From: Sulfuricella sp.
GTDB taxonomy: Bacteria > Pseudomonadota > Gammaproteobacteria > Burkholderiales > Sulfuricellaceae
NCBI GenBank assembly: GCA_031426955.1
Contig: JASJPA010000001.1
Span: 18,152-82,151 of the forward strand
Length of the DNA stretch: 64,000 nt
Reading direction: 5' to 3'
A model generated the notes under the pieces. That model did no database searches. It was not told the origin of the DNA and worked only from the letters and a program-made list of their open reading frames with translations. The position numbers were made by a program, and so were the translations under genes. Positions within the stretch are counted from its first letter, which is position 1; each line of letters begins with the position of its first letter. Shown here one piece after another: positions 1 to 57,570 of this stretch.

Positions 1-1
1 G

Positions 2-1699
2 AAGTTGCCGGACGGTCGCGCGCGCATTCTGCTCTGGCTGCTGCTGGCGTGGTTTCTGGTCTTGATTGCGCGGGCCCTTTACCTGCAGGGGCTGAACAAC
101 GACTTCCTGCGGCAGAAGGGGGATGCGCGCTACAGCCGGGTAATCGAACTGACCGCGCACCGCGGCATGATCACCGACCGCAACGGCGAACCGCTGGCGA
201 TCAGCACGCCGGTGGAGTCGGTATGGGCCAGCCCGAAGGATTTTGAGATCACTCCGGAGCGGGTGCGGCAGTTAGGAAAAATCCTGGAAATGAGCGAAAG
301 CGACGTGGAGAGCCGCTTCACTCAAAGCCAGCGCGATTTTGTCTACCTCAAGCGCCAGGTACCGCCGGAAACCGCGGCACGGGTGATGCAGGTCGATGCG
401 CCGGGCGTATTCCTGCAACGCGAATATCGCCGCTACTACCCGGCCGGGGAGGTGGTGGCCCATCTGCTCGGCTTTACCGGCGTCGACGACAACGGCCAGG
501 AAGGGCTCGAACTGACCTACCAGGACTGGCTCGCGGGCAAGCCGGGCAGTCGCCACGTGATCAAGGATCGCCTCGGCCGTATCGTTGAGGACGTGGAAAG
601 CATTCGCGCACCGCAGGACGGGCATGATCTGGCGCTCAGCATCGACCGCAAGATCCAGTACCTCGCCTACCGCGAGCTGAAAGCGGCGGTCACCGCGCAC
701 AAGGCCAAGGCCGGCGCGATTGTGGTGCTTGACGCGAAGACCGGCGAAATCCTGGCGCTGGCCAACCTGCCTGCCTACAACCCCAACAACCGTGCCAAGC
801 TCAACCGCAACAGCACGCGCAACCGCGCGGTTACCGATATCTTCGAGCCGGGCTCGACGTTCAAGCCCTTTACCGCGGCGGCAGTGCTGGAGGCGGGGAA
901 ATTCAAGCCTGATTCACCGGTTCAGACCGCGCCCGGCACCTTCACCATCGGTTCGGCGACGATCCATGATGCTCATCCCAACGGGGTGCTGACGGTGGCG
1001 CAGGTGATCCAGAAGTCGAGCAACGTCGGCGCTGCCAAAATGGCGCTGTCGCTCGAACCCGAAACCCTGTGGAATGCTTTCGACCGGCTCGGCTTCGGCA
1101 AGCCGCCCCATGCCGGCTTTCCCGGCGAGGCGTCAGGCAGGCTGCGCCCCTACAAGACCTGGCGGCCGATCGAGCAGGCCACCATGGCTTACGGCCACGG
1201 CATTTCCGTCAGCCTGCTGCAACTGGCGCGCTCCTACATGGTGTTTGCCGGAGACGGCGAAATCAGGCCGGTCTCTTTGCTCAAGCTGGATGTCCCACCG
1301 GTAGGGGCGAAGGTGGTCGCGGCGGAAACCTCGCAAGCAGTGCGCAGCATGCTGGAACTGGTGGTGATGCCGGGTGGCACGGCGCCGCGCGCCCAAGTGA
1401 TGGGCTATCGCGTGGCGGGCAAGACCGGCACGGCGCACAAGGAAGAAAACGGCCGTTACTCGGCGGATCGATATATCGCTTCATTTGTCGGCCTGGCGCC
1501 GGCATCCAATCCGCGCCTGATCGTGGCGGTGATGATCGACGAGCCTTCCAATGGTCAGTATTACGGCGGCACGGTGGCCGCGCCGGTATTCAGCCAGGTG
1601 ATGTCGGCCGCGCTGCGCCTGCTTTCCGTGCCACCCGATGCCCCAACCAACAATATCCTTCCGCTGGAAGGCGCCCCCGAAGTGAAGGAGGTGGTATGA
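2..1699 (+). CDS. ftsI: Penicillin-binding protein 3 / septal transpeptidase; 5' end lies outside the window
   Basis: N-terminal TM segment, SxxK (STFK), SxN (SSN) and KTGT motifs; first gene of the dcw order. Confidence 0.97.
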   Translation, partial: KLPDGRARILLWLLLAWFLVLIARALYLQGLNNDFLRQKGDARYSRVIELTAHRGMITDRNGEPLAISTPVESVWASPKDFEITPERVRQLGKILEMSESDVESRFTQSQRDFVYLKRQVPPETAARVMQVDAPGVFLQREYRRYYPAGEVVAHLLGFTGVDDNGQEGLELTYQDWLAGKPGSRHVIKDRLGRIVEDVESIRAPQDGHDLALSIDRKIQYLAYRELKAAVTAHKAKAGAIVVLDAKTGEILALANLPAYNPNNRAKLNRNSTRNRAVTDIFEPGSTFKPFTAAAVLEAGKFKPDSPVQTAPGTFTIGSATIHDAHPNGVLTVAQVIQKSSNVGAAKMALSLEPETLWNAFDRLGFGKPPHAGFPGEASGRLRPYKTWRPIEQATMAYGHGISVSLLQLARSYMVFAGDGEIRPVSLLKLDVPPVGAKVVAAETSQAVRSMLELVVMPGGTAPRAQVMGYRVAGKTGTAHKEENGRYSADRYIASFVGLAPASNPRLIVAVMIDEPSNGQYYGGTVAAPVFSQVMSAALRLLSVPPDAPTNNILPLEGAPEVKEVV

Positions 1700-3276
1700 C
1701 TTCGGTGAGGGGTGAAGTGTCAGGGGTGAGGAGCGGCGTGGCAGCTTCCTTCATCGCTGCTCAACTGGGCGCAGAGGTGAAGCATCTGGCTGTCGATAGC
1801 CGGCAAGTCCGGCAGGGAGATACCTTCGTCGCCTGTCCAGGCGAAAGGCAGGATGGGCGCAAGTTCATCGCACAGGCCATTGCCGCCGGCGCCAACGCGG
1901 TGCTGTGGGAGCGCGAGGGTTTCGAGTGGAATGCCGAGTGGGAAGTGCCGAATCTTCCCGTCGATGGCTTGCGCGACAAAGTCGGCGAGATTGCCAGCCA
2001 GGTTTACGGCGAGCCGTCGCGCCAGTTGCGGACGATCGGCATCACCGGCACCAACGGCAAGACTTCGTGCTGCCACTGGATTGCCCAATGCCTGACCGAA
2101 CTGGGCAGAAAAACCGCCATGGTCGGCACGCTCGGCAACGGTTTTCCCGGTACGCTGGCGCCTGCCGCCAACACCACGCCGGATGCGGTCAGCCTGCATG
2201 CGCTATTGCGCGACTACCTGGCTGAGGACGCAAAATGTGTGGCGATGGAAGTGTCGTCCCACGGTCTGGCGCAGGGCCGGGTCAACGGCGTGCATTTTGA
2301 CATCGCCGTGCTCACCAACCTGTCGCGCGACCATCTGGATTACCACGGCGACATGGCGTCCTACGCTGCCGCCAAGGCCGGCCTGTTCGCGTGGCCGGAG
2401 CTGCAATACGCGGTGCTCAACATGGATGACCCGTTCGGCGTTGAACTGGCCGGCAAGCTGGGTTGCAGCGGCGTGCAGACGGTGGGCTACAGCGTCGAAG
2501 GAAGCGCCCCTCACCTCAATCCTCTCCCGCAAGCGGGAGAGGAGGCAAACGTAAAAGGCGCTTGTTTCGATCGTTGCCGGTTTGCCGTTCTGGCGCGCGA
2601 TCTGGTGACGGACGCTGAAGGCATCCGCTTCAAGGCGGTAACGCCATGGGGGACGGCACAGCTGAGCAGCAAGTTGCTCGGCCGCTTCAACGCTTCCAAC
2701 CTGCTGGCAGCGCTGGCGGTACTGCTGGTGAGCGGCATCGCACTGGAAGACGCGGTGCGCGAACTGGGCAAGGTTGAATCGGTTGCGGGCCGCATGCAGC
2801 GCCTGGGCGGCGAGGGCAAGCCGCTGGTGGTGGTGGACTACGCCCACACCCCGGATGCGCTGGAAAAGGTGCTCGGAACTTTGCGCGAAATCATGGGCGA
2901 CAAAAGCAGGTTGATCTGCGTATTCGGCTGCGGCGGCGAACGCGACCGCGGCAAGCGCCCGCTGATGGGAGCGGCGGCGTCGCGCCTGGCGGACAGCGTG
3001 ATCGTGACCAGCGACAACCCGCGCGGCGAGGATGCCCACGCCATCATCGACGAAATCATCGCCGGCATGGGCGCCAACTACCATGTGATCGATGACCGCG
3101 CTGCCGCCATAGACGCCGCGGTGCGCGGGGCGCAGCCGGATGACGTGGTGCTGATCGCCGGCAAGGGTCACGAGGATTACCAGGAAATCAAGGGCGTGAA
3201 ATGGCCCTTTGCCGATGCCGCTGTGGCACAACGAATTTTGTCCCAAATCGGGATTCCGACTTTAGCTATGCGCTGA
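1696..3276 (+). CDS. murE: UDP-MurNAc-tripeptide synthetase; start at ATG 1696 or GTG 1738
   Basis: ITGTNGKTS P-loop, VDYAHTPD and DNPR motifs; ATGA overlap with ftsI stop. Confidence 0.96.
   Translation: MTSVRGEVSGVRSGVAASFIAAQLGAEVKHLAVDSRQVRQGDTFVACPGERQDGRKFIAQAIAAGANAVLWEREGFEWNAEWEVPNLPVDGLRDKVGEIASQVYGEPSRQLRTIGITGTNGKTSCCHWIAQCLTELGRKTAMVGTLGNGFPGTLAPAANTTPDAVSLHALLRDYLAEDAKCVAMEVSSHGLAQGRVNGVHFDIAVLTNLSRDHLDYHGDMASYAAAKAGLFAWPELQYAVLNMDDPFGVELAGKLGCSGVQTVGYSVEGSAPHLNPLPQAGEEANVKGACFDRCRFAVLARDLVTDAEGIRFKAVTPWGTAQLSSKLLGRFNASNLLAALAVLLVSGIALEDAVRELGKVESVAGRMQRLGGEGKPLVVVDYAHTPDALEKVLGTLREIMGDKSRLICVFGCGGERDRGKRPLMGAAASRLADSVIVTSDNPRGEDAHAIIDEIIAGMGANYHVIDDRAAAIDAAVRGAQPDDVVLIAGKGHEDYQEIKGVKWPFADAAVAQRILSQIGIPTLAMR
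1705..1733 (+). repeat. Four degenerate GTGAGGR heptamers at the murE 5' end
   Basis: gtgaggg gtgaagt gtcaggg gtgagga; same unit as at 8429 and 12068. Confidence 0.75.
2496..2569. repeat. CCTCTCCC-type palindromic element inserted in frame in murE
   Basis: Perfect 10-bp stem CCTCTCCCGC-aa-GCGGGAGAGG (2521-2542) inside an imperfect 13-bp outer stem (2496-2508/2557-2569). Confidence 0.85.
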
Positions 3277-3310
3277 AGCGTATGAAAGATCGTATGCAAG
3301 GAAATGCAAC

Positions 3311-4687
3311 ATGTTAAGCCTGAGTGCAGCAGCCAAGGCCCTGAACGCTGAAACCAGCGGTGCGGACGTGACGTTCTCCGGCGTCACCACCGACAGCCGT
3401 GCGGTGGCGGCCGGCGATTTGTTCGTGGCGCTGAAGGGCGAACGTTTCGATGGGCACAATTACGTCAAGCAGGTGATGGAACAGGGCGCAGCCGCAGCAC
3501 TGGTGGAGCGGCGCGACCCGGCCTGGGGCGATTTCCCGCTGCTGGTTGTCAAGGATGCGCGCCTTGCTCTGGGTGAACTGGCCGGTTACTGGCGCAGCCG
3601 CTTCACCATTCCCGTGGTGGCGCTCACCGGCAGCAGCGGCAAGACCACGGTGAAGGAAATGATCGCAGCGATCCTGCGGGCTCAGACCGGCGTGGCCGAT
3701 CAGGTGCTCGCGACCAAGGGCAACCTCAACAACGACATCGGCATGCCGCTGACGCTGCTCGGATTGCGCGACACCCATCGCTACGCCGTGATCGAGATGG
3801 GCATGAACCATCCGGGCGAGATCGCGTATCTGTCCAGGATCGCCAGGCCCGATGTGGCGCTGATCATCAATGCCCAGGCCGCCCATCTGGCGGGTTTGGG
3901 CACGGTGGAGGCGGTGGCTCGTGCCAAGGGCGAGATTTTCCAGGGCCTGGCCGCCAACGGTACCGCCGTGATCAACGCCGACGACCCTCATGCGGCACTG
4001 TGGCAGGAACTGGCGGGGGCTCATCCCATCATCCGCTTCGGCCTCGAGCAGCAGGCAGAAGTGTCGGCCAGCTTCAAATTGCAGCCCTTCGGCAGTGCAA
4101 TCGAGGTGGTCACTCCCGCCGGTAAATTTGCTGTCGCCTTGCCGGTACCGGGCGAGCACAACGTGCGCAACGCCCTGGCGGCCACTGCCGTGGCTCAGGC
4201 TCTGGGTGTCGACAACGCAACCGTCGCCGCGGGGCTGGCAAAGGTTTCCAGCGTCAAGGGCCGGCTGCTGAAAAATCCCTGCCTGCACGGCGCCACCATG
4301 ATCGACGATACCTACAACGCCAACCCCGGCTCGGTACGGGCGGCGATCGCCGTGCTCGCCGGCATGCCGGGCAAGAAGGTGCTGGTGCTCGGCGACATGG
4401 GCGAACTGGGCGAAAACGCACGCGCGCTGCATGCCGAAATCGGCGCGGCGGCGAAGGCGGCCGGGATCGACCTGCTGTTCACCCTGGGCGATCTGAGCGC
4501 CGCTGCTGCGCAGGCTTTCGGCGAGGGCGGACGGCATTTCGAATATATCGAGGACCTGCTGCACGATATCGAAAACCTGCTGGCGCCGGATGTGACGGTA
4601 CTGGTGAAGGGGTCGCGTTTCATGCAGATGGAGCGGGTAGTGAAAAGTTTCGAGCTGAAGGGGGATTCGACATGCTGCTCGCACTGA
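3311..4687 (+). CDS. murF: UDP-MurNAc-pentapeptide synthetase
   Basis: [23 protein letters not shown] and GDMGELG motifs. Confidence 0.97.
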
Positions 4688-5757
4688 CCCAATGGCTGGG
4701 GCACGACATTCGCGCCTTCAACGTGTTCAGTTACATCACGCTGCGCGCGGTGCTGGCGATGCTGACCGCGCTGATGATCTCGTTCATCGTCGGTCCGACC
4801 ATGATCCGCAAGCTCACCGCCTACAAGATCGGCCAGTCGGTACGCGACGACGGTCCGCAGACGCATCTGGTCAAGGCGGGAACGCCGACCATGGGCGGCG
4901 CGCTGATCCTGGTTGCGATGGCGATTTCCACCCTGCTCTGGGCGGACCTGAGAAACACTTATGTCTGGGTCGTGCTGGCCACCACGCTGGGATTCGGTGC
5001 AATCGGCTGGGTCGATGACTGGCGCAAGGTGGTGCATCGCAATCCCAAGGGGCTGTCGGCCAAGGCCAAGTATTTCTGGCAGTCGCTGATCGGAGTTAGT
5101 GTTGCCGCGTTCCTTGCCATGACGGCCACGCTGCCGGCCCATACCGAACTGATCGTGCCCTTCTTCAAGATGCTGACGATTCCTCTCGGCGGCGTGGGCT
5201 TCGTCGTGCTGACCTATTTCGTCATCGTCGGCAGCAGCAACGCGGTCAACCTCACCGACGGGCTGGATGGCCTGGCGATCATGCCGACGGTGATGGTGGC
5301 GGGCGCGCTGGCGCTTTTCGCCTACGTTGCCGGCCACTTCGTTTTTTCGCGTTACCTCGGTGTTCCCTACGTGCCGGGCGCCGGCGAATTGGCCGTGTTC
5401 TGCACCGCCCTGGCCGGAGCCGGTCTGGGGTTCCTCTGGTTCAATGCCTACCCCGCCGAAGTGTTCATGGGCGATGTGGGCGCGCTGGCGCTGGGCGCCG
5501 CGATCGGCGTGGTGGCGGTGATCGTGCGGCAGGAGATCGTCCTGTTCGTGATGGGCGGAGTGTTCGTGGTGGAAACCCTGTCGGTAGTGCTCCAGGTGGC
5601 GTCGTTCAAGCTTACCGGCAAGCGCATCTTCCGCATGGCGCCTCTGCATCACCATTATGAGTTGAAGGGCTGGAAAGAAAACCAGGTGGTGGTTCGCTTC
5701 TGGATCATATCGATGATGCTGGTGCTGGTGGGGTTGTCCACCCTGAAACTGAGATGA
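4672..5757 (+). CDS. mraY: Phospho-MurNAc-pentapeptide transferase
   Basis: Multi-TM; [16 protein letters not shown] and MAPLHHHYE motifs. Confidence 0.98.
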
Positions 5758-5763
5758 GTAGGC

Positions 5764-5844
5764 GTAGGTCGGGCACCCCGTGCCCGACAAACCCAAATCA
5801 CCATACCCCCAAATTATTTGTTGGGCACGGGGTGCCCAACCTAC
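5764..5844. repeat. GTAG-family REP doublet (REPIN-like)
   Basis: GTAGGTCGGGCACCCCGTGCCCGAC (5764-5788) with inverted copy GTTGGGCACGGGGTGCCCAACCTAC (5820-5844). Confidence 0.9.
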
Positions 5845-5868
5845 ATGGCTTTCGACGTTGAAATTGAG

Positions 5869-7257
5869 ATGAGCTTGAACCTCGAACATAAAAAAGTGCT
5901 GGTGGTGGGGCTGGGCGACACCGGCCTCTCCATGGCGCGCTGGCTGGACGCGAGAGGCGCGGTCGTGGCTGTCGCCGACTCGCGCGACAACCCGCCCCAC
6001 GCCGCACGCCTTCAGGCTGAACTGCCTGGCGTGCCGCTATTCACCGGCAAGCTCAGGGAAGAAGTCTTCCGCAATGCCGACCTGCTCGCGGTCAGTCCGG
6101 GCGTTTCCCTGCGCGAACCGGCCGTTGCCGATGCGCTGGCGCACGGCGTGGAAGTGGTCGGGGATGTCGAGCTGTTTGCTCAGGCACTCAGGACTCAGGA
6201 CTTGGAACTCCGGACTCGGGTTCTGGCCATTACCGGCTCCAATGGCAAGAGCACGGTGACCGAGATGGTCGGTGCGATGTGCAAGAAGGCCGGCCTGCAT
6301 ACGGTCGTGGCGGGAAATATCGGCCTGCCGGTGCTGGATGCATTGGGCGATCTGGATCAGCGCGGCGAGACCGCCGACGTGTTCGTTATCGAACTCTCCA
6401 GTTTCCAGCTGGAAACCACGCACACCCTGAACCCGGCTGCAGCGACCGTGCTCAACGTGACCGAAGACCACATGGACCGCTACAACGGCATGGAGGATTA
6501 CGCCGCGGCCAAAGAGCGCATTTTTGCCGGCAACGGCATTCAGGTGCTGAACCGGGAAGACCGCTACAGCTTGGCGATGGCGAAGCCCGATCGCAGGGTG
6601 ATGACGTTTGGCCTGGATGCGCCACAAAAACCCGAGGACTGGGGTTTGCTGGACGACGAGAACGGCCCGTGGCTGTCGCAGGGCGGAAATCGGCTGATGC
6701 CGTTAGCCGATCTGCCGCTTGCCGGCTTGCACAACGCGGCCAATGCGCTGGCCGCTCTGGCCTTGTGCCGCGCCATCGACCTGCCGCTCCAGCCCCTGAT
6801 CGAGGCGCTGCGCGAATTCAAGGGCTTGCCGCACCGGGTGGAGAAAGTGGCGGAGATTAATGGGGTGACCTTCTATGACGATTCCAAGGGAACCAACGTA
6901 GGAGCCACGGTGGCGGCGCTCAACGGCATGCCGTGCAAAGTGGTGCTGATTGCCGGCGGCGATGGCAAGGGCCAGGATTTCGGCCCGCTAGCACCGGCAG
7001 TGTCTGCCCATGCCCGAGCCGTCGTGCTGATCGGCCGCGATGGCCCAATAATCGGTGCGGCCCTGGCCGGCTGTGGCGTGCCCCTTCTCTCTGCTGCGAA
7101 TATGGAGGAGGCGGTGATCCTGGGATTCGAGCAGGCCCAGCCGGGTGACGCGGTGCTGCTGTCGCCGGCCTGCGCCAGTTTCGACATGTTCCGCAACTAC
7201 GAACATCGCGCCCAGGTATTTATCGCCGCAGTCAAAAAACTGGAGGAGGAAGCATGA
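5869..7257 (+). CDS. murD: UDP-MurNAc-L-Ala:D-Glu ligase; likely start ATG 5869
   Basis: [26 protein letters not shown] and SPACASFD motifs. Confidence 0.97.
6186..6220 (+). repeat. Five ACTCAGG-like heptamers inside murD
   Basis: actcagg actcagg acttgga actccgg actcggg, read as TQDLELRTR just before the P-loop strand. Confidence 0.7.
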
Positions 7258-8417
7258 ATTCCTATTCTCCGGTAGCCGCCCAGCACGCCAGACCCGACTA
7301 CGACCGCACCCTGCTGTGGCTGGTGATCCTGCTGCTCGGTTTCGGGCTGGTGATGGTGTATTCCTCCTCGATCGCCATCGCCGCAGCGAGCAAACACACC
7401 GGTTTCCAGGAAAGCTATTACCTGGTGCGGCAGGCAGTTTTCCTCGGCGTCGGTGCCTTGTTCGGCCTGTTTGCCTTCCAGGTGCCGAACAAGGTGTTGC
7501 AGGAAACCGCGCCCTATTTGTTCCTTTCCGGCCTGGTGCTGCTGGTGCTGGTGCTGATTCCCGGCATCGGTCGCGAGGTCAACGGCAGCCAGCGCTGGCT
7601 GTCACTGGTGGTGATCAATCTGCAGCCGTCCGAGTTCATGAAGCTGTTCGCGGTGCTCTACGCCGCCGATTACACGGTGCGCAAGGCGGCTTACATGGAC
7701 AACATCAAGAAGGGCTTCCTGCCGATGTTCATGGTGATGCTGCTGGTCGGCGGCCTGCTGCTGCGGGAACCGGATTTCGGCGCCTTCGCCGTGATCACCA
7801 GCATCGCCATGGCGATACTGTTCCTCGGCGGCATGAACTGGCGGCTGTTCGCCGGCCTCATCGCCATGCTGCTGGTGGGCTTCCTGGTGCTGATCTGGAC
7901 CTCGCCCTACCGCATGCAGCGCATTATCGGATTCATGGATCCCTGGGCCGACCCCTACGGCAAGGGCTACCAGCTTTCCCACGCGCTGATCGCCTTCGGC
8001 CGCGGCGAATGGTACGGAGTCGGTCTGGGCGCGAGCGTCGAAAAACTGTTCTATCTGCCGGAAGCGCACACCGACTTCCTGCTCGCAGTGATCGCCGAAG
8101 AGCTCGGGTTTGCCGGTGTCGCCGTGGTGCTCCTGCTGTTCGTCTGGCTGACCGTCCGCGCTTTCTCCATCGGCCGCCAGGCGGCCGGGATCGACCGCCA
8201 TTTTGCCGCACTGGTGGCCTACGGAATCGGCATCTGGCTGGCGGTGCAGGCGATCATCAACATGGGCGTGAACATGGGCCTGTTGCCGACCAAGGGCCTG
8301 ACCCTGCCCTTGCTGTCATTCGGCGGCAGCGGAATTGCCGCCAACTGCACTGCGATAGGGGTGCTGCTGCGGGTGGACTGGGAGAACCGGCAGGTGATGA
8401 AGGGGTACTCGGTATGA
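7254..8417 (+). CDS. ftsW: SEDS-family peptidoglycan polymerase
   Basis: Multi-TM; [15 protein letters not shown] and SFGGS motifs. Confidence 0.97.
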
Positions 8418-9619
8418 GTCATGAAGAAGTGAGGAGTGAGGGGTTAGGGGTGAGGAGTAAAACCTCCCACCGCGCCGCCTTTGACTCTACTCCTCACTCC
8501 TCACGCCTCACTCCTCACGGGGTTTCACGCACCATCCTCATCATGGCGGGCGGCACCGGCGGGCACGTGTTCCCGGCCCTGGCCGTGGCGGATTATCTGA
8601 AAGGGCGCGACTGGAACGTGGTGTGGCTGGGCACCCGTGCCGGCATGGAAGCGCGGCTGGTGCCGGAAAAGGGTTACGAAATGGCCTGGGTCAAGTTCGC
8701 CGGCATGCGCGGCAAGGGCGTGTTGCGCTGGGCGGCGCTGCCGCTCATGCTGCTGCTGGCGATGTGGCAGAGTGCGGCGGCGATATTCCGCATCCGCCCC
8801 GATGTGGTGCTCGGCATGGGCGGCTTCACGGCTTTCCCCGGCGGCCTGATGGCTTCCCTGCTGGCCAAGCCCCTGGTGATCCACGAGCAGAACTCAGTGG
8901 CCGGTCTGACCAACCGGGTGCTGGCCTGCCTCGCCGATCGTATCATGGTGGGCTTCCCGTCGGCCTTCAACAACCCCGGCGACAAGCCGATCGGCTGCCG
9001 CAAACCGGCTTTTGACTGGTGCGGCAATCCAGTGCGCGCCGATATCGCCGCCCTGCCTGCTCCTGAACAACGGATGGCCGGTCGTCAGGGCAAGCTGCGC
9101 CTGCTGGTGGTTGGCGGCAGCCTGGGTGCTGCGGCGTTGAACGATGCGGTGCCGCAGGCGCTGGCGCTGATTGCAGAAGCCGACCGTCCCGAGGTGATCC
9201 ATCAGTCCGGCGCCAGGAACCTGGAAAAGCTCAGTGCCAACTATGCCGCTGCCGGTGTCGCCGCCGACGCCCGCGCCTTCATCGACGACATGGCTCAGAT
9301 GTATGCCTGGTGCGACGTGATCGTGTGCCGGGCGGGAGCGCTGACCCTGGCCGAAGTGACTGCCGCCGGTGTGGCCAGCGTGCTGGTGCCTTACCCGCAC
9401 GCGGTGGACGACCACCAAACCGGCAACGCCCGCTTCCTGAGCGAGAACGGCGCGGCGGTGCTGCTGCCGCAGACCGAATTGAACGCGGAAAAACTGGCGG
9501 AACTGCTGCATGGTTTTACCCGCGAGAAGTTGCTGGCGATGGCGCAGGCGGCGAAAAAATTGGCCAAGCCAGAAGCCACGGCGGACGTGGCGAGGGTGTG
9601 CATGGAGCTGGCGAAATGA
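8414..9619 (+). CDS. murG: Lipid II GlcNAc transferase with a repeat-derived N-terminal insertion
   Basis: AGGTGGH, HEQN and DDHQTGNA motifs; ATGA overlap with ftsW stop. Confidence 0.96.
8429..8518. repeat. Heptamer-built inverted repeat (31-bp arms) inside the murG 5' coding region
   Basis: Left arm 8429-8459 gtgaggagtgaggggttaggggtgaggagta; right arm 8488-8518 tactcctcactcctcacgcctcactcctcac. Confidence 0.92.
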
Positions 9620-9630
9620 ATATTTATTTG

Positions 9631-9735
9631 AACCGCAGAGGCGCAGAGACGCAGAGAAACGCAAAAACAAATGCAAGGGCTCTGCGTATGCAAAGGAATT
9701 CTTGGTTTTCTCCGCGTCTCTGCGCCTCTGCGGTT
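9631..9735. repeat. CGCAGAGR octamer-built inverted repeat between murG and murC
   Basis: 29-bp arms at 9631-9659 and 9707-9735 with one mismatch. Confidence 0.92.
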
Positions 9736-9749
9736 AAGGGTTTAAAAAC

Positions 9750-11138
9750 ATGAAACACAAAGTCAAACACGTCCATTTCGTAGGCATCGGCGGCGTCGGC
9801 ATGAGCGGTATCGCCGAGGTGCTGCTCAACCTGGGTTACGAAGTAAGCGGTTCCGATCTGGGCGACAACGTCGCCACGCGTCGGCTGAAGAGTCTGGGCG
9901 CCCAGGTGTATCAGGGCCACGCCGCCAGCAATCTGGAGCGCGCCGATGTGGTGGTGATCTCCACCGCGGTCCAGGCCGACAACCCGGAAGTGGCGGCAGC
10001 GCGGGAGCGCAACATCCCGGTGGTGCCGCGCGCCATGATGCTGGCGGAGCTGATGCGCTTCAAGCAAGGCATTGCGGTGGCCGGCACCCACGGCAAGACC
10101 ACGACCACCAGCCTGATCGCCAGCATCCTCGGCGAGGCGGGCATGGACCCGACTTTCGTTATCGGTGGCAAGCTGGAGGCGGCCGGCGCCAATGCGCGGC
10201 TGGGCCAAGGCGAATTCATCGTCGCCGAGGCGGACGAGTCCGATGCCTCCTTCCTCTACCTGACTCCGGTGATGGCGGTGGTGACCAATATCGATGCCGA
10301 TCACATGGAAACCTACGGCCACGATTTCGGCCGGCTGAAGCAGGCCTTCGTCGATTTCATCCAGCGCCTGCCGTTCTACGGCATGGCGGTGCTGTGCGCC
10401 GACGATGCCAACGTGCGCGAGATCATGCCGCGCATCACCAAGCAGGTAACCACCTACGGCGTGTCAGAATCGGCGCAGGTGCGCGCGACCGACATCAGCC
10501 ATTGCGGTGGCCAGATGTGCTTCAAGGTGCAGCGCGCCGGCCAGCCGGAACTGGCGGTCACGCTCAATTTTCCCGGCCAGCACAACGTACTGAATGCGCT
10601 GGCGGCGATTGCGGTGGCGATGGAAGTGGGCGCGCCGGATGCCGCCATCGTCAAGGGATTGGCCGAATTCCGCGGCGTCGGCCGGCGTTTCGAACGGTAT
10701 GGCGAGGTTTTCCTGCCGAGCGGCGGCAGCTTCACCCTGATTGACGATTACGGTCACCACCCGGTGGAAATGGCGGCAACACTGGCGGCGGCGCGCGGTG
10801 CCTTTCCCGGCCGGCGGCTGGTGTTGGCATTCCAGCCGCACCGTTACACCCGTACTCGCGATTTGTTCGAGGATTTCGTCAAGGTGCTGTCTACCGTCGA
10901 CGCCCTGCTGCTGACCGAAGTCTACCCGGCCGGCGAAGCGCCGATCGTGGCCGCAGACGGCAGAGCATTGGCGCGTGCCATCCGGGTGGCGGGCAAGGTC
11001 GAGCCGATTTTCCTGGAGTCCGCGGTGGAACTGCCGCAGGCAATCATGAATGCGGTACGGGACGGCGATGTGGTGCTGACCATGGGCGCCGGGTCGATCG
11101 GCCAGGTGCCGGCAAAGCTGGTGAAGGGTGATGAGTGA
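9750..11138 (+). CDS. murC: UDP-MurNAc:L-Ala ligase
   Basis: [25 protein letters not shown] and DDYGHHP motifs. Confidence 0.98.
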
Positions 11139-11141
11139 TGA
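11121..11141 (+). repeat. Heptamer remnant (gtgaagg gtgatga gtgatga) forming the murC 3' end and stop
   Basis: Three tandem heptamers encode VKGDE and the TGA at 11136-11138. Confidence 0.55.
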
Positions 11142-11151
11142 GGGCAAAGGC

Positions 11152-12099
11152 ATGAACAGTGCGCTAATGCACGAATCCCGACAACTGCGCGGCGAGTTGC
11201 GCCGCAACGAGCCGATGAGCAAGCACACCAGCTGGCGCGTCGGCGGGCCGGCCGAGCGCTTTTACATTCCGGCGGATATCGCCGATTTGTCGCAGTTTTT
11301 GCAGGGGCTGGCGGCTGACGAGCCGGTGCACTTCATCGGCCTGGGCAGCAATTTGCTGGTGCGCGATGGCGGGGTACGCGGCACGGTGGTGCTTCTGCAC
11401 GGTGCGCTCAACCAGATCACGCTTACTCACGGAAAGCCGGGCGCGCCGGCCGGTGTTTACGCCGAAGCGGGTGTGGCCAGTCCCAAGGTGGCGCGATTTG
11501 CAGCCTTGAACGGTTTCGAAGGCGCCGAGTTTCTTGCCGGCATTCCCGGCACGGTGGGTGGTGCGCTGGCGATGAACGCCGGCTGCTACGGCGCCGAAAC
11601 CTGGCAATACGTGACCGAGGTGCTGACCATCGACAGTTTCGGCGAGTTGCGCCGCCGTACGCCGCAGGATTACGACATCGGCTACCGTCACGTGGCGCTC
11701 AAGGCGGGGAGCGGCAGCGAGTGGTTCGTCGCCGCCTGGTTCGCCTTCAGGCCCGGCAACGGTGAGGTTTCGCGGAAGAAGATCAAGGGCTTGCTGGAAA
11801 AGCGGGTGGCGAGCCAGCCGATCGGCACGCCCAATGCCGGCTCGGTGTTCCGCAATCCTCCCGGCGACCATGCGGCGCGACTGATCGAGGCGTGCGGCCT
11901 GAAGGGAACGACGATCGGCGGGGCGATGGTGTCGCCCAAGCATGCCAATTTCATCGTCAACGCCGGCGGAGCCACGGCAGCGGACATCGAGGCGCTGATC
12001 GCCAGGGTGCGGCAAACGGTCAAGGAACAGCACGGCGTGGAACTGGTGACGGAAGTAAGAGTAATCGGTGAGAAGTTAGGAGTAAGGAGTGAGGAGTAA
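11152..12099 (+). CDS. murB: UDP-N-acetylenolpyruvoylglucosamine reductase; start uncertain
   Basis: [26 protein letters not shown] and HANFIVN motifs. Confidence 0.96.
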
Positions 12100-12196
12100 A
12101 GGCATGCCAGGTGAAATCGACAATATGTTGACTGAGAAAGACGCGAGTGGAGAAATCGGGGTTTTTACCCCTCACTCCTCACCCCTCACTCCTCAC
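12068..12196. repeat. Heptamer-built inverted repeat (33-bp arms) straddling the murB stop and ddl start
   Basis: Left arm 12068-12100 and right arm 12164-12196 with 5 mismatches. Confidence 0.9.
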
Positions 12197-13102
12197 GTCT
12201 TTGGCAAGGTCGCGGTGCTGCTGGGCGGAAAATCCGCCGAGCGCGAGGTGTCGCTGAAGAGCGGCAATGCGGTGCTGGCGGCGCTCAAGCGCAGCGGTGT
12301 GGATGCGCACCCGTTCGATCCGGCCGAGCGGGAGCTGGGCGAGCTGAAGCGGGAGGGCTACCAGCGCGTCTTTATCGCCCTGCACGGCGGCCAGGGCGAA
12401 GACGGCACGGTGCAGGGCGCGCTGGCCCTGCTGGGTATTCCTTATACCGGCAGCGGCGTGCTGGCGTCTGCCCTGGCGATGGACAAATGGCGCAGCAAGC
12501 TGGTGTGGCAGGCGGCAGGGCTGCCGGTTCCCGCCTACGAGCTGCTCGATGCCGGCAGCGATTTTGCGGCGGTCGCCGCGCGCCTCGGCTTGCCGCTGTT
12601 CGTCAAGCCGGCCAACGAAGGCTCCAGCGTCGGCATCAGCAAGGTGAAGGCGGTTGAAGACCTGCGTGCCGCTTACGAGCTGGCGGCGCGTTACGACGAC
12701 CTGGTGATTGCCGAACAGTTCGTCGGTGGCGGCGAATACACCGCTGCGATTCTCGGCAATGATGCGCTGCCGGTGATCAAGATCGAGCCGGCCAACGAGT
12801 TCTACGATTACGAGGCGAAATACCTGCGCGACGACACCCGCTACCTTTGCCCGTGTGGGCTGTCAGCGGAACAGGAGAGCGAAATCCAGCGCCTGGCAAA
12901 ACGGGGCTATGCCGTGATCGGCGGCGCTGGCTGGGGGAGGGTGGATTTCCTGCTCGATGCGGCGGGCAAGCCGTACCTGCTGGAAGCCAACACCTCGCCC
13001 GGTATGACCGACCATAGCCTGGTGCCGATGGCGGCGCGGGCAGCGGGTTTGAGCTTTGAAGATTTGGTGATCAAGGTTCTTGAACTGGCTAGCGTGGAAT
13101 GA
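12104..13102 (+). CDS. ddlB: D-alanine--D-alanine ligase with a repeat-derived N-terminal extension; start ATG 12104 or 12125
   Basis: [24 protein letters not shown] and EANTSPGMT motifs. Confidence 0.96.
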
Positions 13103-13131
13103 ACGCCATGAACCCAGATTATTTGCTAGGC

Positions 13132-13177
13132 GTAGGTCGGGCTTTAGCCCGACATGTCGGGTTGAAACCCGACCTAC
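13132..13177. repeat. GTAG-family REP doublet
   Basis: GTAGGTCGGGCTTTAGCCCGAC-at-GTCGGGTTGAAACCCGACCTAC. Confidence 0.92.
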
Positions 13178-13194
13178 GATTCTGGAACTGAACC

Positions 13195-14001
13195 GTGTGG
13201 GATAAAACGCAGATGACCTTGTGGCTGGCAAACACGCTTTACGCCCTGGCGGCGGTGCTGCTGGTGTATGCCGTGCTGTTCCTGGTGGTGCATCTGCCGG
13301 TGTTTCCGCTGCGCAAGGTGGACGTCAAGGGAGAGCTGCAGCACGTCAACCGCGAGCAGGTGAAGTTCATCGTTGCACGCGAGATGAAGGGGAACTTCTT
13401 TACCCTCGATCTGAACCGCACCCGCGCGGCGTTCGAGAAGCTGCCCTGGGTGCGCAACGTGAACGTGAGGCGGCGCTGGCCGGACCGGCTGGAAGTGGCG
13501 ATCGAGGAGCATGTGGTGCTGGCACGCTGGGGGAGTTCGGCGCTGGTCAATACCCACGGCGAGCTGTTCAGGGCGGCTTCGAACGCGGTGCTGCCGGAGT
13601 TCAACGGCCCGGAAGACGCGGCCAGGGAAGTGACTGGGCATTATGAGGAATTCGGCCGGTTGCTCGAGCCGTTCAACCTGACTCTGACCCGCATGACCCT
13701 GTCGGACCGCCGTGCGTTGCAGCTCAAGCTGAATAATGGACTGGTAGTGGAATTGGGCAGGGAGAAGGTGCGCGAGCGCTTGGAGAAATTCGTCGGGGTG
13801 TACGGCCAGACTGTCGCCAAGCTCCCGCTATCCGTCGCCTACGCCGACCTGCGCTATGCCAACGGGTTTGCGGTGCGCTATCCGGAGATTGCAGAGAAGG
13901 CGGCAAAGAAGGCGCAGCCGGCAGCAAGGCCGAGTCAGGAAAGTTCGAAGAAAAAAGTCGGGTGGCGAAGTGATGTCTATGATCTGGCAACCGCCGTCTG
14001 A
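13195..14001 (+). CDS. ftsQ: Cell division protein FtsQ
   Basis: N-terminal TM, POTRA segment (LPWVRNVNVRRRWP), DLRYANG; precedes ftsA. Confidence 0.94.
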   Translation: MWDKTQMTLWLANTLYALAAVLLVYAVLFLVVHLPVFPLRKVDVKGELQHVNREQVKFIVAREMKGNFFTLDLNRTRAAFEKLPWVRNVNVRRRWPDRLEVAIEEHVVLARWGSSALVNTHGELFRAASNAVLPEFNGPEDAAREVTGHYEEFGRLLEPFNLTLTRMTLSDRRALQLKLNNGLVVELGREKVRERLEKFVGVYGQTVAKLPLSVAYADLRYANGFAVRYPEIAEKAAKKAQPAARPSQESSKKKVGWRSDVYDLATAV

Positions 14002-14016
14002 CCAGGGAGACCAGGG

Positions 14017-15255
14017 ATGAGCAAGACTAAAGAGCAAAAAAATCTGATCGTGGGTCTGGACATCGGCACCTCGAAAATCGTCGCCATCGTCGCGGAGATT
14101 CTGCCGGAAGGGCGGCTGGAGATCATCGGCATGGGGCAGGCGCCGTCGCGCGGTCTGAAGAAGGGCGTGGTGGTGAATATCGAGTCCACCGTCAACGCCA
14201 TCCAGCGCGCGCTGGAGGAAGCCGAGCTGATGGCCGACTGCAAGATCCGCGAGGTCTACACCGGCATCGCCGGCAGCCATATCAGGAGCATCAACTCGCA
14301 TGGCATGGTGGCGATCAAGGACAAGGAAGTGGGGCAGTCCGACGTCGACCGGGTGATCGAAACGGCGCGCGCGGTGATCATTCCGACCGACCAGCAGGTA
14401 CTCCACATCCTTACCCAGGAATTCATCATCGACGGACAGGAAGACGTGCGCGAGCCGCTCGGCATGAGCGGGGTAAAGCTGGAGGTCAAGGTGCATATCG
14501 TCACCGGCGCGATCAGCGCGGCCCAGAACATCATCAAGTGCGTGCGCCGCTGCGGGCTGGAAGTGCGCGACCTGATCCTGCAGCCGCTGGCATCCAGCAT
14601 GGCGGTGTTGTCGGAGGACGAAAAAGACCTGGGCGTGTGCCTGGTGGACATCGGCGGCGGCACCACCGACATCGCGGTATTCACCGGCGGCGCGATCCGC
14701 CACACCTCGGTGATCCCGATCGCCGGCGACCAGATCACCAACGATGTGGCCATGGCGCTCAGGACGCCGACGGCGGACGCCGAGGACCTGAAGGTTAAAT
14801 ACGGCTGCGCGCTGCGCCAGCTGGCCGACGCGAAGCAAATGATCGAGGTGCTCGGCGTCGGCGACCGGCCTGCGCGCCAGCTATCCCGCCAGACTCTGGC
14901 CGAGGTGATCGAGCCGCGAGTCGAGGAACTGTACAGCCTGGTGCAGGCGGAATTGCGCCGCAGCGGTTTCGAGGAGCTGCTCTCTTCCGGCATCGTCATC
15001 ACCGGCGGCAGCAGCGCCATGGAGGGTATGGCGGAGCTGGGCGAGGAGGTGTTCCACATGCCGGTGCGGCTGGGGATGCCGCAGTACGTGGGCGGGTTGG
15101 CCGAGGTGGTGCGCAATCCGCGCTTCGCCACCGGCGTGGGGCTGCTGCTCGCGGGCATGGATCAACACCAGCGGCATCACCTGGCAACGCTGCAGAACGG
15201 CTCGATGACACAGATTTTCAATCGGATGAAGAGTTGGTTTCAGGGGAACTTTTGA
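14017..15255 (+). CDS. ftsA: Cell division protein FtsA
   Basis: GLDIGTSK, DIGGGTT and TGGSS actin-fold motifs. Confidence 0.98.
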   Translation: MSKTKEQKNLIVGLDIGTSKIVAIVAEILPEGRLEIIGMGQAPSRGLKKGVVVNIESTVNAIQRALEEAELMADCKIREVYTGIAGSHIRSINSHGMVAIKDKEVGQSDVDRVIETARAVIIPTDQQVLHILTQEFIIDGQEDVREPLGMSGVKLEVKVHIVTGAISAAQNIIKCVRRCGLEVRDLILQPLASSMAVLSEDEKDLGVCLVDIGGGTTDIAVFTGGAIRHTSVIPIAGDQITNDVAMALRTPTADAEDLKVKYGCALRQLADAKQMIEVLGVGDRPARQLSRQTLAEVIEPRVEELYSLVQAELRRSGFEELLSSGIVITGGSSAMEGMAELGEEVFHMPVRLGMPQYVGGLAEVVRNPRFATGVGLLLAGMDQHQRHHLATLQNGSMTQIFNRMKSWFQGNF

Positions 15256-15300
15256 TTTTTTGGTTTTTTAACTTTGGGTATAACAACAAAGGAGACAGGC

Positions 15301-16455
15301 ATGTTTGAGATCATGGACACACAAACACAGGAAGCGGTAATCAAGGTGATCGGCGTGGGCGGCTGCGGCGGCAATGCAGTGGATCATATGATCGCCAGCG
15401 GCCTGGACGGCGTCGAGTTCATCTGCGCCAACACCGATGCGCAGGCGCTCAAGCGCAATCAGGCCGGCATCACCGTGCAGTTGGGCTCGGCCATCACCAA
15501 GGGTCTGGGTGCGGGCGCCAATCCCGGAGTCGGGCGCGAGGCGGCGCTGGAAGACAGGGAGCGCATCGCCGAGCTGATCGATGGCGCCGACATGCTGTTC
15601 ATCACCGCCGGCATGGGCGGCGGCACCGGCACCGGCGCCGCGCCGGTGGTGGCCGAAGTCGCCAAGGAGCTGGGCATCCTGACCGTGGCGGTGGTGACCA
15701 AGCCGTTCGGCTTCGAGGGCAAGCGCATGAAAGTGGCGCTCGAAGGCATCGAGGCGCTGACGCAGCATGTCGATTCCCTGATCGTGATCCCCAACGACAA
15801 GCTGATGGAAGTGCTGGGCGGCAAGATCGGCTTCCGCGATGCGTTCAAGGCGGCGGATGGCGTGTTGCATGGCGCGGTGGCGGGCATTGCCGAGCTGATC
15901 AAGTGCACCGGCCTGATCAACGTCGACTTTGCCGACGTGCGCACGGTGATGTCCGAGATGGGCATGGCGATGATGGGCTCGGCCCAGGCAACCGGCGCCG
16001 ACCGCGCCCGCATGGCGGCGGAGCAGGCAGTGGCCAGTCCGCTGCTGGAAGATGTCAACCTGTCCGGTGCGCGCGGCGTGCTGGTCAACATCAGTGCCAG
16101 CGAGGACATGAATCTCGAGGAAGTCTACGAAGTGATGAACACCATCCGCAGCTTTACCGCCGAGGACGCAACGGTGATTTTCGGCACGGTGTTCGACAAC
16201 ACACTGCAGGACGAATTGCGCGTGACAGTGGTGGCTACCGGCCTGGGTTCGCCGGTCAACCGTCAACAGAGCAAGCCGTTAAGCATAGTGATTTCGAAGA
16301 CCGGTACCGACAATGAGCCGATGATGGTGGATTACGCTGCACTGGAACAACCCTCAGTGTTCCGGAACCGGCGTGAAGCCCAAGTCGAGGCGATGAAACA
16401 GTCCGGCGTGGAATTGCTCGATATTCCGGCATTCCTGCGCAAGCAAGCCGACTGA
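15301..16455 (+). CDS. ftsZ: Cell division protein FtsZ
   Basis: GGGTGTG tubulin signature, NVDFAD, C-terminal [11 protein letters not shown]; SD GGAG before ATG 15301. Confidence 0.98.
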
Positions 16456-16465
16456 CCCGCGCGAT

Positions 16466-16534
16466 GTAGGTCGGGCTTCAGCCCGACATGTCGCCTAGAG
16501 GCGCCTACTTCTGGCGGGTTAAAACCCGACCTAC
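16466..16534. repeat. GTAG-family REP doublet after ftsZ
   Basis: GTAGGTCGGGCTTCAGCCCGAC (16466-16487) with inverted GGCGGGTTAAAACCCGACCTAC (16513-16534). Confidence 0.88.
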
Positions 16535-16642
16535 AATAGCAGCATCTGCAGGGTGTCGGTTTCGGTGCGAGAGTTGGCCTGCCACGCTCGCCGTGCTAAA
16601 CTGCCGGCCTCTGACAACACCATGATGCTCATGGGAAATTTC

Positions 16643-17557
16643 GTGATTAGACAGCGGACACTGAAAAATATCATACGCGCCACTGGGGTGGGGCTGCATA
16701 CCGGCGAGAAGGTGTACCTCACCTTGCGTCCGGCCGCAGTCGACACCGGCATCGTGTTTCGTCGCGTCGATCTGGCTGAACCTGTGGAGATCAAGGCGGA
16801 GCCGTTCAGTGTCGGCGAAACCCGGCTGTCCTCGACGCTGGTGCGGGATGGCGTCAAAGTGTCCACCGTCGAGCATCTGATGTCTGCCTTTGCCGGCCTG
16901 GGTATCGACAATGCCTATGTCGACCTGTCCGCGCCGGAAGTGCCGATCATGGACGGCAGCGCCTCGCCCTTCGTGTTTCTGCTGCAGTCCGCCGGCATCG
17001 AAGAGCAGTCGGCGCCGAAGAAATTCATCCGCGTCAAAAAACCGGTGGAGGTCAGGGACGGCGACAAATGGGTGCGCTTCGATCCGCACCCGGGCTTCCG
17101 GGTGAAGCTCACCATCGCTTTCGATCACCCGGTATTGTCCAATTCCGGCCAGTCCGTCACGGTGGATTTTGCCGACACTTCCTTCATCAAGGAAATTGCC
17201 CGTGCCCGCACCTTCGGCTTCATGCACGAGGTGGAGGCAATGCGCTCGCAGGGCCTGGCGCTGGGCGGCAGCCTCGACAACGCGATCGTGATGGACGAGT
17301 TTCGCGTGCTCAACAGCGATGGCTTGCGCTACGAGGATGAGTTCGTCAAGCACAAGGTGCTGGATGCCATCGGCGATCTTTATCTGCTCGGCCACCCGCT
17401 GATCGGTGCATTTACCGGCTACAAGTCCGGACATGCCATGAATAACCGCCTGTTGCGCTGCCTGATGGCGGATGCCGAGGCGTGGGAATTCGTCAGTTTC
17501 GAGCGCCAGGAAGATGCGCCGGCCGCCTTGCTGCGGTTGAACAGCCTGGCAGCCTGA
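16643..17557 (+). CDS. lpxC: UDP-3-O-acyl-GlcNAc deacetylase; likely GTG start
   Basis: RQRTLK N-terminus, TVEHLMSA and HKVLDAIGD zinc motifs. Confidence 0.97.
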
Positions 17558-30872: not shown

Positions 30873-30947
30873 GTAATGGGTAATGGGTAAACCGGCGACG
30901 GTGTTGCCTTTGACTTTTCTTATCCCCCATCACTCATCACCCATTAC
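30873..30947. repeat. Degenerate heptamer-built inverted repeat (GTRATGR units)
   Basis: gtaatgggtaatgggtaa (30873-30890) against tcactcatcacccattac (30930-30947). Confidence 0.7.
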
Positions 30948-53842: not shown

Positions 53843-53912
53843 GGGGTATGGGGCTAGAGGCTGGAGGCGGTTGTCGCTTCGCGTTTTCCTCCTGCCCCTC
53901 GCCTCGTGCCTC
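53843..53912. repeat. Degenerate heptamer-built inverted repeat between soxA and soxB
   Basis: Arms 53843-53867 and 53888-53912 pair with 4 G-U and 3 mismatches. Confidence 0.6.
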
Positions 53913-53932
53913 TTTCCTGATTTGGAGTTCCC

Positions 53933-56869: not shown

Positions 56870-57570
56870 TGGCCGATTCCCTGATCCGCGTCGAAGGCCT
56901 GCACAAGCAGTATGAAATCGCCGGCGGCCGCACCGCCCCGGTGCTGCATGACGTCAACCTGAGCATCGCCCCCGGCGAATTCGTCGCCATCATGGGGCCC
57001 TCCGGTTCGGGCAAGTCCACTTTCATGAACATCCTCGGCTGTCTCGATACGCCAACCAGCGGGCATTATTTCCTGAATGGCCGGGATGTCGCGCAGCTGA
57101 ATCCGGACGAACTTGCTAATCTGCGCAACGGCCTGATCGGCTTCGTGTTCCAGGGCTTCAATTTGCTCAAGCGCGTCACGGCTGTCGACAATGTCGCGCT
57201 GCCGCTGCTGTATGCCGGCCTGGGACAGGCTGAACGCCGTGAACGCGCCCTGGAAATGCTGCGCCAGACCGGCCTGGAAAAGTTCGCGCTATCGCTGCCC
57301 AATCAGCTCTCCGGCGGCCAGCAGCAGCGCGTCGCCATCGCCCGCGCGCTGATCAACCGCCCGCCGCTGATCCTGGCGGACGAGCCCACCGGCAATCTCG
57401 ACACCCACACCGGCCAGGAGATCATGGAAATATTCACCCGCCTCAACCGCGAACAGGGCATGACCGTCATCCTGGTAACCCACGAGCTGGATATCGCCCG
57501 CTATGCTCACCGGATGGTGCGCTTCGTGGACGGGCGGGTGGCGCATGATGGGGAGGTGGCGTCCGTATGA
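56869..57570 (+). CDS. MacB/LolD-like ABC ATP-binding subunit
   Basis: [27 protein letters not shown]. Confidence 0.95.

Follow-up and report, generated by a model that had tools for sequence, protein, structure and literature searches.

Why is the division and cell wall (dcw) cluster of a Sulfuricella genome interspersed with repeats, and do these repeats serve the cluster or simply inhabit it? The question arises from a stretch of 64,000 nucleotides (hereafter, the window; C1:18152-82151 of the 44-contig, 3.05 Mb genome of Sulfuricella sp.), in which the dcw cluster occupies positions 1-17557 and comprises ftsI, murE, murF, mraY, murD, ftsW, murG, murC, murB, ddl, ftsQ, ftsA, ftsZ and lpxC, all on the + strand. 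A preliminary description of the window listed ten repeat elements in this cluster and proposed that either insertion favours a long transcript or the hairpins were retained as a code for mRNA processing and stability. All ten elements are indeed present. We consider it likely that they reflect repeated, lineage-specific insertion and replacement of selfish repeats, filtered by the function of essential genes, and that they do not form a conserved regulatory code.

Turnover of the insertions across Sulfuricella

By MurG, the closest relatives of the window are Sulfuricella genomes. The 14 dcw genes were located in 13 related loci, 11 from other Sulfuricella and two from outgroups (Sulfuriferula and a Rhodocyclaceae genome). 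Occupancy is counted per 12 Sulfuricella, i.e., the present genome and its 11 relatives, from junction sequences read directly; an automatic junction matrix over-counts, as the divergent protein ends of the outgroups shift its baseline, and was not used for this purpose. Both outgroups have a compact dcw cluster with overlapping stop and start codons and about no insertions. Each of the 11 other Sulfuricella loci carries roughly two to seven junction or in-frame insertions, differently placed, and the comparison thus bears out that the cluster has been hit repeatedly.

The mraY/murD junction is occupied in 7 of 12 genomes by at least four families (REP, octamer, heptamer and others), ftsW/murG in 9 of 12 (the GTGAGGR type in four, the GTGATGG type in four and one other), murG/murC in 6 of 12 (octamer, nonamer, heptamer) and murB/ddl in 8 of 11 (heptamer, nonamer, octamer, REP). 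For each junction, at least one close relative has no insert, such empty sites being plain ATGA stop/start overlaps, and some relatives carry inserts at junctions that are empty here (murF/mraY, murD/ftsW, ftsA/ftsZ). With L004, its closest full-length relative (94% MurG identity), the present genome has just two elements in common, the ftsI/murE heptamers and the octamer element at murG/murC; the two genomes differ at seven other places. At murB/ddl of L008, the end of a nonamer element persists beside a REP, which suggests nested insertion or replacement of elements. The start of murE (1696-1740) is encoded by heptamer runs in most Sulfuricella, with a unit that varies between GTGAGGG, ATCAGCC, ATCAGCA and GGCGGAA (L003-L014), and the murD heptamers are found in most Sulfuricella as well, being shorter or absent in L011, L014, L016 and L018.

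In several relatives, the 3' end of the upstream gene occurs once more behind the insert (mraY/murD in L011 and L007, ftsW/murG in L003, ftsA/ftsZ in L026 and L014). The last ~20 mraY codons are repeated in this way in L011, and the end of ftsW together with its ATGA in L003. Such inserts appear to be of a different kind, one that restores the gene end. The 37-nt murE/murF spacer (3277-3310) was considered as a further repeat and ruled out, having only two copies in the genome. It is common to L004 and L003, most relatives have an overlap at this place, and it resembles part of the murC/murB insert of L009; the spacer may be the remnant of a lost element.

The dcw cluster of Neisseria is said to be interrupted by Correia and other repeats, which belong to other families and are reportedly linked there to promoters and terminators, whereas neither terminator-like sites nor promoter-like sites above chance were found here. 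That cluster is likewise betaproteobacterial, and its intergenic spaces have reportedly been widened by species-specific repeats (Snyder, Shafer & Saunders 2003, Mol Microbiol 47:431; a reference in PMC3184786).

Repeat density of the cluster relative to the genome

Whole-genome gene calling yielded 2759 genes (86% coding), with gene starts picked by coding score; the longest murE and murG open reading frames (ORFs) run through repeats. A repeat catalogue based on 12-mers covered 41% of the genome and was discarded in favour of 16-mers with at least five copies. The first catalogue combined repeated 16-mers with long inverted repeats (762 loci), a broad one comprised repeated 16-mers, inverted repeats and heptamer arrays (796 loci), and a third was restricted to named families (608 loci), so that the genomic load of such elements amounts to ~600-800 loci. 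Heptamer arrays were called by a degenerate unit pattern and checked against shuffles, as a strict consensus-unit filter loses true inverted pairs.

In the first catalogue, the dcw cluster holds 7 loci against a mean of 3.5, a count reached by 9% of equal-sized windows. The broad catalogue gives 9 loci against a mean of 3.7 (standard deviation 2.3), reached by 2.6% of windows in 14 distinct regions, and the named families give 9 against 2.85 (standard deviation 2.0), reached by 1.2% of windows. Eight of the 13 dcw junctions are occupied, compared with 17% of co-directional gaps genome-wide (binomial P = 4e-4), and only 0.5% of 13-gap runs reach eight. Elements occupy 17-20% of co-directional and 22-36% of convergent gaps genome-wide. 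Heptamer arrays account for 4 dcw loci against 0.34 expected (~12x; reached by 0.56% of windows), and REP doublets for 3 against 0.84. Four other regions hold 9-12 named-family loci: the trp region, metK-lpxL-dapF-xerC-hslVU, gatCAB-mreBCD-mrdAB and the cbb/glycolysis operon. The last of these is the sole region denser in heptamer arrays than dcw; this tkt-gap-pgk-pyk-fba operon (C17:100000-113000), situated beside form II RuBisCO, carries 5 heptamer-array loci and 11 named-family loci.

The cluster is therefore dense, at 2.4-3.2 times the genome mean, and lies in the upper tail of an over-dispersed distribution, as one of about five such regions and one chosen after being seen. The preliminary description had called it unusually dense in comparison with the remainder of the window. 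The density itself holds; the contrast was inflated, because the remaining ~47 kb (16535-64000) are repeat-poor, with 4 loci against 12.4 expected. One of these four, at 57307-57344, proved to be a false positive, a conserved coding motif of the ABC-transporter signature.

Could the density then be a matter of ascertainment, with nothing regional behind it? About 205 windows of this size fit into a repeat-rich genome, a few of them are bound to look dense, and this one was picked after being noticed beside a repeat-poor neighbour. The shares of windows and regions that match the dcw count in the first and broad catalogues would agree with such an explanation. With curated families, however, only four other regions reach that count, the per-junction probability is low, heptamer arrays stand far above expectation, and most other Sulfuricella dcw clusters carry many insertions where the outgroups have about none. 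Ascertainment alone is, in our view, unlikely.

The proposal that insertion favours a long transcript found no support. No family lies in longer same-strand runs than co-directional gaps do (Mann-Whitney p = 0.1-0.96), and the one nominally significant family in the operon-length test lies in shorter runs. The mean element count of 13-gap runs is lower where all gaps are co-directional than for runs overall (2.07 vs 2.79). A preference of heptamer arrays for long operons or very tight junctions was likewise rejected: operon length has no effect, and the gap that remains after subtracting the element is only slightly short.

REP doublets and the in-frame palindrome

Heads of repetitive extragenic palindromic (REP) sequences, GTAGGTCGGGC, number 149 genome-wide. 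The consensus GTAGGTCGGGC-TTNA-GCCCGAC, with a GTAG-type head and a GC-rich palindrome of 20-25 nt, occurs at 5764, 13132 and 16466 together with inverted partners. Thirty REP doublets form inverted repeats, 25 of them in co-directional, 3 in convergent and 2 in divergent gaps, i.e., they are inverted, high-copy and mostly extragenic. The genome encodes seven Y1 transposases (PF01797). In two individual cases, such a gene lies ~120 nt from a REP doublet (C15:102368-102685 and 102805-102850, respectively) or adjoins a doublet of a second family (C44:6090-6407 and 5927-6019). At C3:96440-98636, three Y1 transposase genes (IS200/IS605-type, similar to REP-associated tyrosine transposases, RAYTs) stand in tandem within 2.2 kb.

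Judged by these features, the REP doublets appear to be of the kind moved by Y1 (RAYT) transposases and would fit the REP/REPIN pattern. With the REP, BIME and REPIN elements of E. coli and Pseudomonas and their RAYTs (PMC3116915, PMC3333891) they share the GTAG-type head, the short GC-rich palindrome, the arrangement in inverted doublets, a copy number of ~150, a position mostly between same-strand or convergent genes, and the presence of Y1 genes, two of them beside REP doublets. The Sulfuricella elements differ in their consensus and in the co-occurrence of seven Y1 genes with at least three REP families in 3 Mb.

The palindrome within murE belongs to a second kind of repeat, CCTCTCCC, with 119 matches genome-wide (palindromic, both strands counted). 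It adds ~20 residues (SAPHLNPLPQAGEEANVKGA) to MurE, and this insert is absent from all ten relatives aligned at the site, as befits an in-frame palindromic insertion. Five relatives carry its peptide type (...NPLPQAGEG...) in MurF and MurC, where it sits at other positions. The corresponding in-frame inserts in murF and murC (L009, L011, L013, L007, L015) belong to the same palindrome family and are in some cases doubled or nested; murB also has in-frame inserts (L013, L007, L014), and the MurF, MurC and MurB inserts together range from 16 to 47 residues.

In this respect, the CCTCTCCC palindrome is similar to the palindromic elements of Rickettsia (Ogata et al. 2000, in PMC3184786) and to the betaproteobacterial repeat element known from Bordetella (Hot et al. 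2011, same source), which are in-frame palindromes read through as additional residues in conserved, working proteins. Sulfuricella counterparts are the inserts in MurE here, in MurF and MurC of relatives, and at the MurG N-terminus. The elements differ in that sequences and host are unrelated and that Sulfuricella targets several essential paralogous Mur ligases, at positions varying by species.

Tandem-unit hairpins and their gene-carrying cassettes

Heptamer arrays of the GTRAKSR type occur 88 times in the genome, or 96 times with the ACTCAGS type included (1-4 in shuffles), and octamer arms 155 times. Arms of both unit lengths are also found around a gene. Between trpD and trpC, at C15:12441-12875, is the genome's sole GxxExxY gene (PF13366, E = 2e-43; TIGR04256), and both ends of its reading frame fall within octamer arms of the ACCGCAGAGG type, the same type as at 9631-9735. 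Six of the eight GxxExxY genes examined in relatives (L055-L066) have octamer or nonamer arms 378-408 nt apart around the gene. Similarly, the sole four-helix-bundle gene (PF05635, "23S rRNA intervening sequence protein", E = 3e-34; TIGR02436), located at C39:25596-25987 between rfbB and rfbA, is bracketed by inverted heptamer arrays. Across the genus, 18 copies of this gene are present in 15 of 18 genomes, most with visible heptamer arrays on their flanks, and the flanking unit differs at nearly every locus (GTGAGGG, GTGATGG, ACTCAGG, CTAGAGG, CCACTCG, TTTCAGT and others). All unit types of the window have a counterpart among these cassette units, also those of the ACTCAGG run in murD and of the degenerate element at 53843, whose CTAGAGG unit type brackets four-helix-bundle genes in relatives (L037, L053, L054).

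The 23S rRNA intervening sequence of Coxiella contains an S23p ORF and a 28-bp stem of terminal inverted repeats with tandem GACAGAT heptamers, the number of which varies between strains; such stems are cut by RNase III in other bacteria (PMC4990558). The elements at 8429-8518 and 12061-12196 resemble it in having terminal inverted repeats with tandem heptamers, which form GTGAGGR stems of 31-33 bp. Intervening sequences of Coxiella, Leptospira and Salmonella (PMC4990558) and the Sulfuricella elements share a stem of ~28-30 bp built from terminal inverted repeats with tandem heptamers, and the four-helix-bundle gene of Sulfuricella, like most of its copies in the genus, is flanked by heptamer arrays. 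The dcw copies differ in lacking an ORF (loops of 28 and 63 nt in the two heptamer hairpins), in lying at mRNA junctions or in reading frames, and in belonging to a set of ~70 loci; all heptamer copies studied are located between or within protein-coding genes and not at helix 25 or 45 of 23S rRNA. The octamer element at 9631-9735 is comparable, as its 47-nt loop contains no gene. Strict membership among the intervening sequences therefore fails, because there is no ORF and the location is not in rRNA. We read the dcw heptamer and octamer hairpins as probable gene-less relatives of the two cassette types. By analogy with the rRNA stems, RNase III might possibly cleave the heptamer hairpins.

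The cyanobacterial short tandemly repeated repetitive (STRR) sequences and the TAACTGA heptamer repeats of Beggiatoaceae (PMC4679880) are also tandem heptamers by start codons, some in ribosomal or essential operons, with period 7 over-represented. They are mostly direct arrays of one unit, whereas the Sulfuricella arrays form inverted pairs, vary in unit by locus and are tied to a cassette gene. Genome-wide (e.g., C5:51612-51775, C17:45431-45590), long elements with nonamer, decamer or CACAGAG units share the ends CCTAAAAA...TTGA and TCAA...TTTTTAGG, with the arms inside them and loops of ~70-110 nt, which suggests one superfamily with tandem units just inside its ends.

Preservation of frames and signals at occupied sites

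The empty ftsW/murG site reads GTATGAGCCGCACC, with the murG ATG overlapping the ftsW stop. All eight heptamer inserts at this junction are multiples of three in length (72-108 nt) and free of in-frame stops, which lengthens MurG by 24-36 residues behind its second codon. In the present genome, the frame that opens at the coupled ATG (8414) runs through the element and gives a 36-residue insert. The inserts of other types in L003 and L015 do not keep the frame, and a new start is used. The preserved frame at ftsW/murG suggests that the mRNA has to stay intact across this hairpin.

Other junctions show comparable accommodation. The murB/ddl element provides the stop codon of murB and a GAGGAG ribosome-binding site just 5' of the ddl ATG, and its right arm lies within the ddl reading frame. 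The octamer element between murG and murC begins 11 nt past the murG stop codon, with its end 14 nt ahead of the murC start codon, and ATGA(A) is found on both sides of the murG/murC insert. The individual dcw elements are given in Table 1, together with the two elements outside the cluster that served as a comparison.

Table 1. Repeat elements of the dcw cluster and two comparison elements, in window coordinates.
Element	Position	Strand	Location	RNA fold
Single-arm array of four GTGAGGR heptamers	1705..1732	+	Directly 3' of the ftsI-stop/murE-start ATGA overlap; in frame as MurE start	No structure
CCTCTCCC-GCAAGC-GGGAGAGG palindrome	~2497..2569	+	In frame within murE	-41 kcal/mol, z -5.6
REP doublet, inverted GTAGGTCGGGC heads	5764..5844	.	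mraY/murD junction, 6 nt past mraY stop	-53.7 kcal/mol, z -7.7
Five decayed ACTCAGG heptamers	6186..6220	+	Within murD, variable linker before ATP-binding loop	No structure
Inverted pair of GTGAGGR heptamer arrays	8429..8518	.	ftsW/murG	31-bp stem, 28-nt loop; -54.6 kcal/mol, z -6.3
Inverted pair of CGCAGAGR octamer arrays	9631..9735	.	murG/murC	29-bp stem, 47-nt loop; -63.5 kcal/mol, z -9.7
Three GTGAWGR heptamers	11121..11141	+	Across murC stop and candidate GTG start of murB (overlap)	No structure
Inverted pair of GTGAGGR-type heptamer arrays	12061..12196	.	Across murB stop (12097-12099) and ddl start (12104)	-50.1 kcal/mol, z -3.7
REP doublet, back-to-back GTAGGTCGGGC hairpins	13131..13178	.	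Between ddl and ftsQ	-37.2 kcal/mol, z -7.3
REP doublet with extra sequence between its REPs	16466..16534	.	10 nt past ftsZ stop, upstream of lpxC	-36.4 kcal/mol, z -4.4
Comparison (non-dcw): inverted pair of GTAATGG heptamer arrays	30873..30947	.		
Comparison (non-dcw): degenerate inverted heptamer pair, CTAGAGG unit type	53843..53922	.		

RNA structure and the case for mRNA punctuation

Seven of the ten dcw elements fold as RNA at -36 to -64 kcal/mol (z = -3.7 to -9.7 against shuffles), with hairpin stems of 24-33 bp. For these, the designation as hairpins in the preliminary description is appropriate; the single-arm runs at 1705, 6186 and 11121 fold no better than shuffles and are not hairpins. 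An Rfam search matched no family and returned only sub-threshold look-alikes of microRNA precursors, as any long hairpin yields. In a terminator scan, no terminator-like site was found at any element and no element was followed by a U-tract; the combined promoter and terminator scan had no hits at the elements and did not exceed shuffles.

Among 7191 stem positions, taken from inverted repeats in co-directional gaps, the transcribed strand has 155 G.U and 156 A.C mismatches, a symmetry expected if complementarity is kept at the level of DNA or copying and not of mRNA. The stems show no trace of selection for pairing as RNA. Together with positions that are not conserved, families that swap at junctions and three elements that are not hairpins, this speaks against a retained code for processing and stability.

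Hairpins could nevertheless act as adaptive punctuation, kept to cut or stabilise segments of the dcw mRNA through RNase III or exonuclease protection, or to slow ribosomes near stop codons, and in this way set the output of neighbouring genes. In E. coli, REPs can reportedly stabilise upstream mRNA (Newbury et al. 1987) and are also said to lower translation of a gene whose stop lies within ~15 nt (Liang et al. 2015), and three dcw elements start 6-11 nt past a stop codon. The great stability of the stems, the RNase III cleavage of related stems in rRNA, the co-variation of arms at an orthologous cassette site, and the filling of the same four junctions in 6-9 of 11-12 Sulfuricella by unrelated families are in line with such a role. 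However, no junction is filled in every species, close relatives differ at most junctions, the same families occur at hundreds of unrelated sites, and neither the mismatch symmetry nor the three elements without a fold would be expected. The hairpins at ftsW/murG and probably murB/ddl, moreover, lie within a reading frame and are always in frame, which argues against routine cleavage there. Adaptive punctuation therefore seems to us rather improbable. A more specific version holds that gene-less relatives of the rRNA intervening sequences spread into junctions and were repeatedly selected at mraY/murD, ftsW/murG, murG/murC and murB/ddl as RNase III-cleavable or ribosome-pausing punctuation that uncouples neighbouring cell-wall genes, the arms co-evolving as the unit drifts; we judge it improbable to the same degree.

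Target preference and the selfish-repeat account

A different possibility is that the elements prefer ATGA overlaps or existing hairpins, or spread locally, so that a cluster of tight junctions collects them regardless of selection on the mRNA. The inserts sit exactly at the ATGA overlaps that the empty sites reveal, the murG/murC insert is flanked by ATGA(A) as described, and many heptamer loci occupy the entire gap between same-strand genes. Local spread would be consistent with the three GTGAGGR elements within 10.5 kb, two of which have right arms (8488-8519 and 12166-12197) that are 94% identical, although low-complexity arms make the relatedness of copies hard to judge; the nonamer-element end beside a REP in L008 would fit attraction to an existing element. 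On the other hand, for the tandem-unit families the residual gap after subtraction of the element (medians 31-46 nt) is only slightly under the genome median of 55 nt, and insertions are rare at other tight junctions of the cluster (murD/ftsW, murF/mraY). As the main cause, such a target or neighbourhood effect is possible and somewhat doubtful; it is compatible with the selfish-repeat account.

Some observations weigh against that account. Transposition of the tandem-unit elements has, to our knowledge, never been demonstrated, and we know of no established enzyme for it. That different families recurrently occupy the same four junctions throughout the genus could just as well reflect selection for a hairpin there. 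At the rfbB/rfbA cassette (C39:25596-26017; L043-L050), both arms change their unit together between species (GTGAGCG, GTGATGG, CCACTCG, GGGGAGT), so pairing must be maintained by something. Finally, the enrichment of occupied dcw junctions is real, and selfish repeats explain its regional cause only in part.

On balance, we consider it most likely that repeated colonization by three genome-wide kinds of selfish repeat, i.e., REP doublets, gene-less hairpins with tandem units of 7-9 nt, and the CCTCTCCC palindrome, accounts for the state of the cluster. Insertion, replacement and loss are fast and lineage-specific. Only harmless copies would survive, because every dcw gene is essential. The surviving copies would be those at exact gene junctions that keep or rebuild the stop codon, ribosome-binding site and start codon, that remain in frame if read through, and that bring no terminator. 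A junction once occupied probably becomes a target for further elements, so that occupancy would persist as the family changes. Direct observation covers the elements and their copy numbers, the statistics on density, the turnover, the preservation of frames and the link between arms and genes; we infer from it the selective filter, the pull of occupied junctions and any consequence for the mRNA.

Implications

The link between arms and genes ties hairpin repeats with heptamer or octamer units, which are widespread and poorly described, to two small genes familiar from the intervening sequences of 23S rRNA. It suggests a complete, gene-carrying form of these repeats and makes their RNase III processing in mRNAs a concrete idea. 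Few bacterial operons are as conserved and as tightly packed as the dcw cluster; here, selfish hairpins that turn over between species are tolerated at its junctions and within the MurE, MurG and Ddl reading frames, and the insertions provide a natural map of where the essential dcw proteins and junctions accept additional sequence.

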